Sequence record: PP355091.1
DNA from: Escherichia phage 235Ecol030PP
Reading direction: 5' to 3' (one strand)
DNA length: 64,000 nt
Shown: in pieces, positions 39,612 through 48,549 of the stretch
Layout of the letters: each line of letters opens with the position of its first letter
Position numbering within the stretch: position 1 is the stretch's first letter
Notes under the pieces: model-generated
What the model was told of the DNA's origin: nothing
The model's input: only the letters and a program-made list of their open reading frames with translations
Database searches by the model: none
Made by a program: the position numbers and the translations under genes

Positions 39612-41199
<1,588 letters not shown>

Positions 41200-41206
41200 A
41201 ATAAAA

Positions 41207-41222
41207 TGGGCCTTGCGGCCCA
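41207..41222 (-). terminator. hairpin between nrdB stop and denA start
   Basis: Minus strand UGGGCC GCAA GGCCCA then UUUUAUU. Confidence 0.55.
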
Positions 41223-41226
41223 CTCC

Positions 41227-41729
41227 TTAAAAGTATTTTTTAAAACTCATCATAACTTTATCATCAACATCATTATCAATCTGTGCAACAAGATAAGATG
41301 ACAGTTCTACTTCTTGCGGCGCGGATTGAACATTATCAGAATTAAGATATTCACGAATCCAAGGATATGGATGTTTAACCGGAGCATCAGTAATTGGGCA
41401 TGGAAGACCGCACTGTTTCATACGAGATACAGTTAAGTAATCAATAAAGCTCCACATGCTATTTGTATTTAATCCAGGAACATCGCCATCTTTAAATAAA
41501 TGAACTGCCCAATCTTTTTCTTGGCGGTTAACTTCCATGAAAATATCAACTGCTTCTTGTTCACACTCTTGAGCAATTTTAACCCATTCATCGCCATCAG
41601 TGCCAAGTTGAAGTTGACGAATAATATATTGAGTGCCTTTAAGGTGAAGCTGCTCATCACGTGCAATGAACTTCATAATTTTGGCATTACCTTCCATGAT
41701 TTCCATGTTCTTATGGAAGTTAAAGGTAC
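41227..41729 (-). CDS. nrdB: ribonucleotide reductase small subunit, exon 2
   Basis: R2 C-terminal sequence (NMEIMEGNAKIMKFIARDEQLHL...); 3' splice junction inferred after intron terminal G at 41730. Confidence 0.82.
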
Positions 41730-42818
41730 CGTATGTTCGATTGAGCTCGCTAATTCTCAACCCGTTCTCTTATGAACTGCTACATATTACTATGCAGACC
41801 AGACTATATCACAATCCCAGAGGGATTCTCCCCATTTCGAGTCGCTTGACCCTACGTCCGAAGACTAGTCGTTGAACCTTGCTTTGCAATTGTCGCCGTG
41901 CCATCGTTTATATGTTGATGGTGATAAATCTTTCTTATCACAATATGGACAATTCAATTGAATTCTATTTGGATTTAATTTACATCTGTCATTATGTTTT
42001 AGATAAAATCCAGGACCTTTACCAATGTGACCGCAGAAATCACATGTGATTTCTTTTTGTGCAGGATGGGTCCCGTTCTTAACCATTTCTAATGTTTTTG
42101 CTGATGTTCTTTTCTTATGGTCTTCTGACAAGAAATGATGCGAACCGTCATTTACCCGTTTTGATTGAGTTTCTGACTGCATTTTACCACCGCAAAATAC
42201 ATGAGTACCTTCTTTTATAGCTGCAATATTGCGTTCTTTAACTTTTGCAATATGCTCAGCTTGTTGAAAATTATGTATACCTAATGCAACTCTATTTAAA
42301 TTAGATTTACGCTGTATTTCACCGTCTAAAAGATGAAATGTACCATTTTCTATCTTAGATTTAATAGAGGCAATATTTTTAGCTCGTACTTCAGGAATAT
42401 TAAAAATCTGGATTTCTCTAGATTTTGCGGCTTTAGAAGCTAATTCAGAAATTTCTTCAGGAGAATATTTCATTCTAAGCTTTATAGCATGACAAGCCTG
42501 GTAATCTTTTTGAGCTAAATGTATATCATAATGTTCCTGTATAGAAAGGCACATCAAATTATCTAAATCATTATTTTCACGGTTACCGTCTTTATGATGG
42601 ATTTCGTATGTTCTTCCATCAGAATCTTTAGGTATAGGTCCGTTAGCATCTATCCAAATTTTTCTATAGTTCAATTGTGCATCCTCTTAAAAGTATAATC
42701 ATATTCATATTATACTAATTAAAGGTGCAAGCAAAACCTTGGCTGCTAGTTTTCCATAAAGGACTTTCCAGCAATTAAAGGAGTTTTCGATAAACGTTAC
42801 CGTTTAAAGGCGCATTTT
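41730..42818 (-). mobile_element. group I self-splicing intron in nrdB (1089 nt) carrying a homing endonuclease ORF
   Basis: Interrupts conserved R2 motif; 5' junction GCGT|AAAATGCGCC allows P1 pairing GCGU/GCGC with G.U; 3' end ...GAACATACG parallels td intron end ...GAACATAATG. Confidence 0.82.
41865..42674 (-). CDS. I-TevIII: intron-encoded HNH homing endonuclease, full length
   Basis: 269 aa; HNH motif EIHHKDGNRENNDLDNL; C-terminal Cys/His zinc-finger-like CDFCGH...CPYCDKK; apparent TTG start 7 nt after GAGGA. Confidence 0.8.
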   Translation of the reverse strand: MNYRKIWIDANGPIPKDSDGRTYEIHHKDGNRENNDLDNLMCLSIQEHYDIHLAQKDYQACHAIKLRMKYSPEEISELASKAAKSREIQIFNIPEVRAKNIASIKSKIENGTFHLLDGEIQRKSNLNRVALGIHNFQQAEHIAKVKERNIAAIKEGTHVFCGGKMQSETQSKRVNDGSHHFLSEDHKKRTSAKTLEMVKNGTHPAQKEITCDFCGHIGKGPGFYLKHNDRCKLNPNRIQLNCPYCDKKDLSPSTYKRWHGDNCKARFND

Positions 42819-43494
42819 ACGCAAAAGATACATAAAAACGAATAGCTTCCAATGCGTTGATTACATGAAGGCAAAGATAAAGAGATTTCATTAGTGCTCG
42901 TTTAGCTTCGGCTTCTTGTTTAATAGCTCGGTTTAAACGAAAGACGGCATCAGGAGATTCTTTAGCTAATTCTACAAATTCTTTAGCATTTTCCCATTCA
43001 CGGGTCTTCTTAAGAACATCATCATAATAGCGACCGATAGATTCAGCACGTTTCATGATAGCTTCATCTAATACAATCTCATCAAATACCTTAGCAGGGT
43101 CATTGAACAAGTTACGCATGATATGGGTATATGAACGACTGTGAATAGTTTCGCTAAAAGTCCATGTTGCTACCCATGTATCAAGGCTTGGATCTGAAAT
43201 CAATGGCATAAGCACAGCAGACGGTGCACGCCCCTGGATGGAGTCTAACAATGACTGGTATTTTAAGTTATTGATAAATATAGATTTTTGATGTTCTGGG
43301 AGCTTATTAAACTGTGCAGCATCCATCATCAAGTTTACTTCTTCCGGACGCCAGAAAAATGAGAGCGAACGTTCAATAAGTTCTTCAAATACCTTATGTC
43401 GTTGAATATCATAACGTGCAATTCCAAGACCTGAACCGAAGAACATAGGTTCTGTTAAAACATCAACTGGATTTGTATTAAAAACTGTGCTCAT
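42819..43494 (-). CDS. nrdB: ribonucleotide reductase small subunit, exon 1
   Basis: 225 codons plus 1 nt, ends ...AIRFYVSFA; last exon base is the T of the in-frame TAA. Confidence 0.85.
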
Positions 43495-43545
43495 AATTTT
43501 TCCTCTTAGTTAATAGATAGTGACTCGTCCATGAGTCAAATTATA

Positions 43546-46127: not shown

Positions 46128-46344
46128 ATTGTTTTTCCGTTAAAACAGTAATATCGTAGTAACAGTCAGAAGAAGTTTTAACTGTGGAAATTTTATTATC
46201 AAAATACTCACGAGTCATTTTATGAGTATAATATTTTTTGCCATAAATGATAATAGGCTGATTTGGTCCTGGAACTTCTAACTCGCTTGGGTTAGGAAGT
46301 GTAAAAAGAACGGCACCAGAAGTATCTTTAAATCGTAAAATCAT
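46081..46344 (-). CDS. hypothetical 87-aa protein (position of T4 nrdA.2)
   Basis: ATG overlaps td stop (ATGA). Confidence 0.5.
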
Positions 46345-46652
46345 ATTGCCATTTTCCCTTTAATTGCTGGATGCGATTCATAATTTTCAAGGATAAAATC
46401 TTTCGGTTTCATGTATTCAGTTAACCAGTAAAGCTGTGTTTCGGTGTCACAATTTCCAAACTCTATAGGCCAATCAATTTTAAGTTCACACAGTTCTTTA
46501 GGCTCACGACGTAAAATTTCTTTACATTGTTCTACGTGATTCATATAGATATGAGTATTACCACCGGAAAATATCAAATCTCCCGGAATAAGATTACACA
46601 TCTTAGCTACAATATGAACTAACGTAGCATATGATGCAATATTAAATGGAAG
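46341..46652 (-). CDS. td: thymidylate synthase, exon 2
   Basis: Begins [25 protein letters not shown] after intron terminal G (46653); 103 codons. Confidence 0.9.
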
Positions 46653-46971
46653 CATTATGTTCAGATAAGGTCGTTAATCTTACCCCGGAATTATATCCAG
46701 CTGCATGTCACCATGCAGATCAGACTATATCTTCAACTTGTTAAAGCAAGTTGTCTATCGTTTCGAGTCACTTGACCCTACTCCCCAAAGGGATAGTCGT
46801 TAGGCATTTATGTAGAACCAATTCCATTATCAGATTTTACACGGTAAGTAACTAATCCTGATGAAATTATTAAAGGGTAGTCCTACAATTTAGCACGGGA
46901 TTGTCTACTAGAGAGGTTCCCCGTTTAGATAGATTACAAGTATAAGTCACCTTATACTCAGGCCTCAATTA
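46653..46971 (-). ncRNA. td group I intron, ORF-less (319 nt)
   Basis: 5' end TAATTGAGGCCTGAGTATAAGGTGACTTATAC and 3' end ...GATTAACGACCTTATCTGAACATAATG match remembered T4 td intron ends; no room for an I-TevI ORF. Confidence 0.88.
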
Positions 46972-47519
46972 ACCCAAGAAAACATCTACTGATCGTTGAT
47001 ACCACTGCAAATCCAAATAACCATTACGCACATTAAACTGATAGAACATATGACAAGGTGGTAATGCCATATATTTAAGTTCAGCTGGATTCCACGCAGA
47101 AACAATTTGACGCCTATCATTTGGCAGTTTTTTAATACGATCAATAACTTCTATAATTTGATCTACACCACCAAAATCACGCCACTGTTTTCCATAAATT
47201 GGACCAAGTTCACCGCTATGGTATCCTAAATCTTTTGCTTGATTTTCGTAATTTTCATCCCAAACTGTTTTGCCTTGGATTAACGAATCATGTTGAATTA
47301 ATCGCAAATCATTGACATTTGTGCTTCCCGATAAAAACCAAAGCAGCTCAGCAATGCAAGCTTTCCAGGCGAGCTTCTTAGTTGTTACTGCAGGAAAACC
47401 TTTAGTTAAATCCCAGCGTAATTTAGTACCGAACAAAGCAATTGTTCCTGTGCCTGTTCGGTCATCGGTTTCGTAGCCATTTTCCAGGATATCTTTAATT
47501 AAAAATTGGTATTGTTTCA

Positions 47520-47520
<1 letters not shown>
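46972..47520 (-). CDS. td: thymidylate synthase, exon 1
   Basis: Start set to ATG 47520 (MKQYQ...; track start is TTG); 183 codons ending ...VFLG; 183+103 = 286 aa as T4 TS. Confidence 0.9.

Positions 47521-48549
<1,029 letters not shown>

Follow-up and report, generated by a model that had tools for sequence, protein, structure and literature searches.

The nrdB locus of Escherichia phage 235Ecol030PP was analyzed within a 64,000-nt stretch of record PP355091.1 (the window) and features a gene split by a group I intron that in turn carries the open reading frame (ORF) of the homing endonuclease I-TevIII—all on the minus strand (Table 1). The first nrdB ORF (42817..43494, −) accounts for residues 1 to 225 of the R2 protein and has the C-terminal end ...RFYVSFA; the second, whose 3′ end lies at 41227 (−), includes ...TFNFHKNMEIMEGNAK.... 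The intron had been predicted from the sequence with a length of 1089 nt, and both its position and its length hold, with junctions that are the same as in T4. The pattern of the locus is not a matter of chance since the segment is 98 to 99% identical to annotated nrdB/I-TevIII loci of many phages. Downstream of nrdB follow denA (endonuclease II; 40789..41223, −) and rnlA (RNA ligase 1; 39612..40772, −), an order shared with T4 and RB3. Both are lengthened via upstream GTG starts in the program-made ORF list, their annotated RB3 homologues being shorter (denA 411 nt, rnlA 1125 nt).

Table 1. Features of the nrdB locus and its intron, in window coordinates
Feature	Position	Strand	Description	Basis
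nrdB exon 1	42819..43494	−	676 nt; last base U pairs with G in P1	E. coli R2 alignment
Exon 1 tract adjoining the insertion site	42819..42849	−	31 nt; invariant in 11/11 phages; spans cleavage positions −14/−16	Alignment
Group I (IA2-type) intron	41730..42818	−	1089 nt; 5′ start AAAAUGCGCC, 3′ end ...ACAUACG (terminal G)	
Ribozyme 5′ half	42729..42818	−	P1 3′ strand (internal guide GCGC), P2, P3 5′ strand, P4, P5, P6 and P6a 5′ strands	Fold
RNA hairpin	42678..42729	−	52 nt; pairs Shine-Dalgarno GAGG; late-promoter motif in loop	
Late-promoter motif	42702..42709	−	TATGAATA here, with G at 42706; TATAAATA in T4 and RB3	
Shine-Dalgarno GAGGA	42682..42686	−	7 nt upstream of TTG	
I-TevIII ORF	41865..42674	−	269 aa, open; TTG start, TAG stop	
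Block deleted in T4	42120..42610	−	491 nt; short direct repeats AGAAGA(A/C)/CATA at bounds	
Ribozyme 3′ half	41730..41888	−	P6a and P6 3′ strands, J6/7, P7, P7.1, P7.2, P3 3′ strand, P8, P7 3′ strand, P9, P9.1, P9.2, terminal G	Rfam and fold
P9 hairpin	41780..41797	−	CUGCAUA-GUAA-UAUGUAG; T4 has CUGCAUG-GUAA-CAUGCAG	Read from alignments
nrdB exon 2	41227..41729	−	503 nt, stop codon counted	E. coli R2 alignment

At the 5′ junction, exon 1 ends on ...TTTGCGT and the intron starts with AAAATGCGCC; at the 3′ junction, the intron ends on ...GAACATACG and exon 2 continues with GTACC. Joining the exons as ...TTTGCGT/GTACC... creates a Cys codon from T/GT and yields a frame of 1179 nt for a protein of 392 residues containing ...RFYVSFACTFNFHKNMEIMEGNAK... 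in its sequence. The original prediction placed the frame break after RFYVSFA and had splicing at these junctions create the Cys codon and restore the FAC motif. This is borne out by the alignment of spliced NrdB with E. coli R2 (e.g. 1piy, 1rib), which covers residues 3 to 388 with E = 1.5e-129 and runs gap-free across the junction: NALEAIRFYVSFAC(T/S)F spans it uninterrupted, and the junction Cys corresponds to the Cys of the E. coli FAC motif. The insertion site is located within a strongly conserved stretch of NrdB according to the same alignment, and computational removal of the intron regains a continuous conserved nrdB frame.

Many records of related phages present nrdB as two genes and not as a spliced join. 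Their entries are two CDSs named "ribonucleotide reductase beta subunit", accompanied by a hypothetical protein or a homing endonuclease, as would be expected if splicing did not occur and nrdB consisted of two separately translated genes flanking a free-standing HNH gene. Such an arrangement is extremely improbable, given that the intervening DNA contains a group I catalytic core with a U·G at the 5′ splice site and a G at the 3′ end, and that the junction rebuilds the FAC motif gap-free against E. coli R2. Splitting the gene in this way is an artefact of automated annotation.

Group I introns need a 5′ exon ending in U and an intron ending in G. The 3′ terminus of the nrdB intron is a G (omega-G; ...ACAUACG/GUACC), and in P1 the pairing of GCGU/A with UGCGC places a U·G at the 5′ splice site, as judged by the fold of an ORF-trimmed mini-intron computed with ViennaRNA. 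This folding approach was chosen because Rfam scans misplaced the 5′ half of the ribozyme. At gathering threshold, a scan of the whole window returns the td intron as the only match and does not find the nrdB intron; a scan of the nrdB region with a permissive cut-off recovers the 3′ core of RF00028 at 33.9 bits and E = 1.4e-6, the gathering score being 50. The score stays below gathering and the 5′ half is forced into the ORF because an ORF insertion of about 840 nt splits the model. In a scan of the shorter T4 copy of the intron with RF00028, the 5′ half is still not recovered. The 3′ half is aligned with high posterior probability and comprises AAGGUUCAACGACUA (3′ strand of P6, J6/7, and P7), the inserted helices P7.1 and P7.2, the 3′ strand of P3, P8, GAUAUAGUCU (3′ strand of P7), and P9.

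The minimum-energy fold of the mini-intron features P1, P3, P4, P5, P6, P6a, P7.1, P7.2, P8, P9, P9.1, and P9.2. P7 is missing from it because this helix is a pseudoknot; its strands GACUA and UAGUC are complementary as read from the sequence. Folding for P1 to P9, which had been suggested as a check, hence recovers the expected helices up to P9.2 and, together with the Rfam core match, upholds the assignment as a group I intron. The 5′ half is the same in T4 and RB3 apart from one base in loop L5. P9 differs from its T4 counterpart at three positions and keeps its pairing by one compensatory change of G-C to A-U and one of G-C to G·U. The stop codon TAG of the ORF is part of GACUAG in the 5′ strand of P7, and the last ~25 nt of the ORF supply the 3′ strands of both P6a and P6. 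The 3′ end of the ORF therefore overlaps the catalytic core—in P6a, P6, and P7—much as predicted. The nrdB intron of the window is an RB3-type group I intron that, by inference from the literature on RB3 and T4, should self-splice.

The ORF within the intron is open over its full length and matches Pfam HNH_3 with E = 6e-13, as expected from the prediction of an intact 269-residue HNH protein. The HNH residues H26, H27, N39, and H48 are all found, as are C211, C214, C242, and C245. The predicted zinc-finger-like region at the C terminus resolves into two CX2CX12-13HX3C motifs spanning residues 211 to 231 and 242 to 263. In I-TevIII, the HNH domain is N-terminal and H26, H27, N39, and H48 are each needed for cleavage; zinc is bound by the two CX2CX12-13HX3C fingers (C211/C214 and C242/C245), on which DNA binding depends (Robbins et al. 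2007, PMC1865063). The protein is identical to RB3 I-TevIII at 268 of 269 positions, both in the 2014 record KM606994 and in the 1991 deposit X59078.1, and its ORF is uninterrupted relative to the RB3 gene. The only difference is Y23, which is D23 in RB3; nine of ten full-length copies carry Y23, making RB3 the outlier. For further comparison, the window was aligned with ten relatives (11 sequences), including T4, RB3, WilhelmHis, Ozark, TadeuszReichstein, pSe_SNUABM_01, and ESh24. Across this alignment, I-TevIII of the window bears zero private amino-acid changes.

The linker of I-TevIII repeats G-(T/S/I)-H-x-(F/A) motifs at residues 132, 156, 177, and 201. A match of residues 74 to 114 (window ~42333..42455, −) to the Pfam family FlgM (anti-sigma-28 factor) exceeds the cut-off of 25 bits slightly, at 26.2 bits and E = 9e-6, and is probably a chance resemblance of a helical linker. 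When the PDB was searched with the I-TevIII sequence, the best hit was an unrelated deaminase at E = 0.29, so that sequence comparison detects no homologue of solved structure.

Five codons ahead of the TTG codon the frame is closed by a TAA, and neither ATG, GTG, nor TTG occurs between this TTG and H26, which leaves TTG as the sole canonical start that keeps the HNH motif. The original prediction named the same codon as the only start ahead of the motif, 7 nt after GAGGA, and X59078.1 and KM606994 annotate I-TevIII from it as well; the TTG start is hence a three-decade-old annotation. Annotations of the locus in relatives are inconsistent, the endonuclease CDS being 810 nt long where it begins at TTG and 690 or 609 nt where an internal ATG is used. 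A 690-nt CDS is annotated in WilhelmHis and TadeuszReichstein, and a 609-nt CDS in pSe_SNUABM_01, where the TTG frame stops at codon 47. These records would fit a translation start at an internal ATG, at Met41 or later. It is nonetheless very unlikely that the protein begins there: the product would be devoid of H26, H27, and N39, each of them needed for cleavage, and codons 1 to 40 are conserved, with only one synonymous change and the Y/D exchange at codon 23. The GAGGA at a distance of 7 nt, the in-frame stop five codons upstream, the use of TTG in the 1991 and 2014 RB3 records, and a published residue numbering that fits this start likewise argue for TTG. The practical value of the element lies in a correct annotation, namely a TTG-initiated product of 269 residues together with a spliced nrdB join; annotations from internal ATGs would drop catalytic histidines.

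A megablast search of 50,697 phage records with a 1351-nt query matched 717 records, 84 of which hold at least 80% of the query; these long-form records all belong to T4-like phages of Escherichia, Shigella, Yersinia, and Salmonella. RB3 and RB5 to RB10 are among the matches and are annotated with nrdB as a spliced join and with I-TevIII. The intron 3′ core occurs in 128 phage records, and about two thirds of the intron-bearing records have the long form. The ORF of T4 is truncated, as the original prediction had it: 491 nt are missing, which removes the HNH domain including its motif and shifts the frame. Salmonella phage pSe_SNUABM_01 features a change of GAA to TAA at codon 47 of I-TevIII, and Shigella phage ESh24 a 6-bp deletion across the late-promoter motif.

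The hairpin upstream of the ORF folds with −17.9 kcal/mol (z = −2.4), and the same fold is present in RB3. RNA begun downstream of the promoter motif has essentially no structure (−1 kcal/mol). All three intron endonucleases of T4 combine an intron promoter with a hairpin sequestering the ribosome binding site, and only late transcripts begun inside the hairpin are translated (PMC2988022). An operator resembling the homing site and overlapping the intron promoter has been proposed in the literature; its best match in the intron lies where expected, at window 42728 with 16/27 identities, but across both strands 44 further window positions score at least as high, so that the match is not above chance.

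A private A-to-G change at 42706 turns the T4 late-promoter consensus TATAAATA into TATGAATA in the window. The consensus is present in T4, RB3, and all but one of the eight other aligned relatives, the exception being ESh24 with its 6-bp deletion there. The G at 42706 is one of two intron bases found solely in the window among the 11 sequences, the other being a synonymous change at 42141. In the annotated phage collection, none of the 124 phage records with this 66-nt stretch matches the window exactly. Exact-pattern scans of IMG/VR viral contigs found neither promoter variant and are uninformative on variant frequencies. Either a sequencing error or a neutral change that arose very recently could account for the G. 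A list of T4 late-promoter sites has the perfect consensus at 32 of its 50 entries, and single deviations occur and can be used (PMC2988020). The change at 42706 may lower expression of the endonuclease; alternatively, the TATGAATA variant could adjust when, or how strongly, the enzyme is expressed.

One conceivable reading combines normal splicing with a mutated intron late promoter (TATAAATA to TATGAATA) that leaves the endonuclease silenced or under-expressed. The intron would then be fixed and effectively immobile, having taken the first step of a decay cycle in which T4 and other relatives have advanced further. The restriction of G to the window among the aligned copies, the lack of an exact match to the 66-nt stretch in phage records, and the frequency of the perfect consensus among T4 late-promoter sites are in line with such silencing, and so are the other decay states: the 491-nt deletion of T4, the codon-47 stop of pSe_SNUABM_01, and the 6-bp motif deletion of ESh24. 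It is set against a fully open ORF without a private amino-acid change, against the possible error or recent neutral origin of the base, and against possible translation from read-through transcripts, and overall appears rather unlikely.

Among the ten relatives, the intron is 98.7 to 99.8% identical to that of the window, and the adjacent 132 nt of exon 1 only 73 to 96%. The divergence of exon 1 starts 31 nt upstream of the insertion site, and the reconstructed homing site does not vary between −31 and the insertion site among the 11 phages compared. I-TevIII cuts the intron-less allele at −14/−16, and homing of the RB3 intron amounts to 4.3% per recipient versus <0.1% for a T4 donor (PMC1865063). 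An intron of low divergence next to a diverged exon 1 would be the expected trace of homing with short co-conversion tracts. Beyond the 31 nt, exon 1 (42819..42950, −) occurs in two silent-site haplotypes—one in the window, WilhelmHis, Ozark, and TadeuszReichstein and one in T4, RB3, and others. The haplotype switch looks like the boundary of a co-conversion tract. The nrdB intron combines single-base variants of the T4 type with others of the RB3 type, as a mosaic.

The gap between nrdA and nrdB (43495..43545) measures 51 nt and contains neither mobE nor nrdB.1; WilhelmHis, the closest relative in the nrdB region, is also without mobE. In T4, the defunct nrdB intron is mobilized in trans by the neighboring mobE (Wilson and Edgell 2009, PMC2790892). 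With mobE absent, any mobility of the intron in the window therefore depends on I-TevIII alone, with no back-up route. The prediction of an RB3-like and presumably mobile element largely stands, backed by the 268/269 identity to RB3 I-TevIII; the private substitution in the late promoter adds a small caveat. Taken together, the promoter change and the lack of mobE could be a snapshot of the earliest decay of a homing endonuclease—transcriptional silencing of an intact gene after fixation of the intron—a reading that is doubtful at present.

The element is, with high confidence, a full-length RB3-type mobile group I intron of T-even phage nrdB. Its RNA folds as an IA2-type ribozyme and would excise itself from the nrdB pre-mRNA and join ...UUUGCGU to GUACC..., which would restore a functional β subunit of class Ia ribonucleotide reductase. 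The I-TevIII gene is looped out of P6a and encodes an HNH endonuclease whose catalytic domain is N-terminal and whose C-terminal domain, with two zinc fingers, serves DNA binding and dimerization. After cleavage of the intron-less allele, repair off the intron-bearing allele would copy the intron and a short flanking exon tract. Three restraints would act on I-TevIII expression, the first being the weak TTG start. In early and middle read-through transcripts, the hairpin would hide the Shine-Dalgarno sequence and would also stop ribosomes from disrupting the P6/P7 core overlapped by the ORF 3′ end. The ribosome binding site would be exposed only in transcripts begun at the late promoter inside the hairpin. 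The sequence itself shows the anatomy, the junctions, the restored frame, the intact ORF with its defined residues, the hairpin, and the near-identity to RB3. Self-splicing, the chemistry of cleavage, homing, and late-only expression are ascribed to the window by analogy; for self-splicing, cleavage, and homing, the underlying experiments were done with copies that are 98.7 to 99.6% identical.

The element is already known, as the RB3-type nrdB intron with I-TevIII, and is real but ordinary, with the tested defining features of intron and enzyme present apart from the altered late-promoter motif. Publications from 1986 to 2010 cover the element and its enzyme as well as its mobility and regulation, and the element carries little weight as a discovery, near-identical copies being found in about 84 sequenced phage genomes. 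Homing endonucleases pass through a cycle of gain and decay. The series of I-TevIII states in the relatives—intact, promoter variant, promoter deletion, premature stop, and large deletion—fits this textbook cycle. The early-silencing reading of the private promoter substitution would, if true, be modest in scope.

The full-length form of the nrdB intron was reportedly first described in phage RB3 by Eddy and Gold in 1991 (cited in PMC1865063). The RB3 intron (X59078; PMC1865063) shares with the window the gene, the insertion site, the ORF in the P6a loop, the TTG start with its Shine-Dalgarno sequence, and the 269-residue protein, and is 99.6% identical at the intron level. It differs by two single-A insertions absent from the window, in loop L5 and 3 nt before the 3′ splice site, and by a late-promoter motif that reads TATAAATA in place of TATGAATA. 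The exon 1 flank of RB3 is only 88% identical to that of the window, and RB3 has mobE upstream of nrdB, whereas the window has none.

The T4 nrdB intron has a length of 598 nt and features identical junctions and an identical ribozyme core, with 98.7% identity over the shared 598 nt. It lacks the HNH-coding block of 491 nt (window 42120..42610), and its P9 differs by compensatory changes. I-TevIII of T4 is inactive because this block is lost, and mobility of the intron is provided by mobE in trans (PMC2790892).

The td/I-TevI and nrdD/I-TevII introns of T4 resemble the nrdB intron by homologous IA2-type cores and a looped-out endonuclease ORF. They also share a late promoter with a hairpin sequestering the ribosome binding site, and cleavage distant from the insertion site (PMC2988022). 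I-TevI and I-TevII are GIY-YIG monomers, whereas I-TevIII is an HNH dimer. The thymidylate synthase gene td of the window (exons ~46341..46700 and 46985..47532) contains an intron at 46701..46981 (−) of ~285 nt, which is a full-length match to the RF00028 model at 73.8 bits; in P7.1 and P7.2 it is close in sequence to the nrdB intron. It carries no I-TevI ORF, the T4 td intron having a length of 1016 nt. The short td intron is one contiguous piece in many T4-like phages, and others have the I-TevI version.

I-HmuI of Bacillus phage SPO1 is likewise encoded by a phage group I intron and features an N-terminal HNH domain within an extended, modular DNA-binding protein (PMC1865063). Unlike I-TevIII, it is a monomer that nicks one strand and is devoid of the two CCHC zinc fingers.
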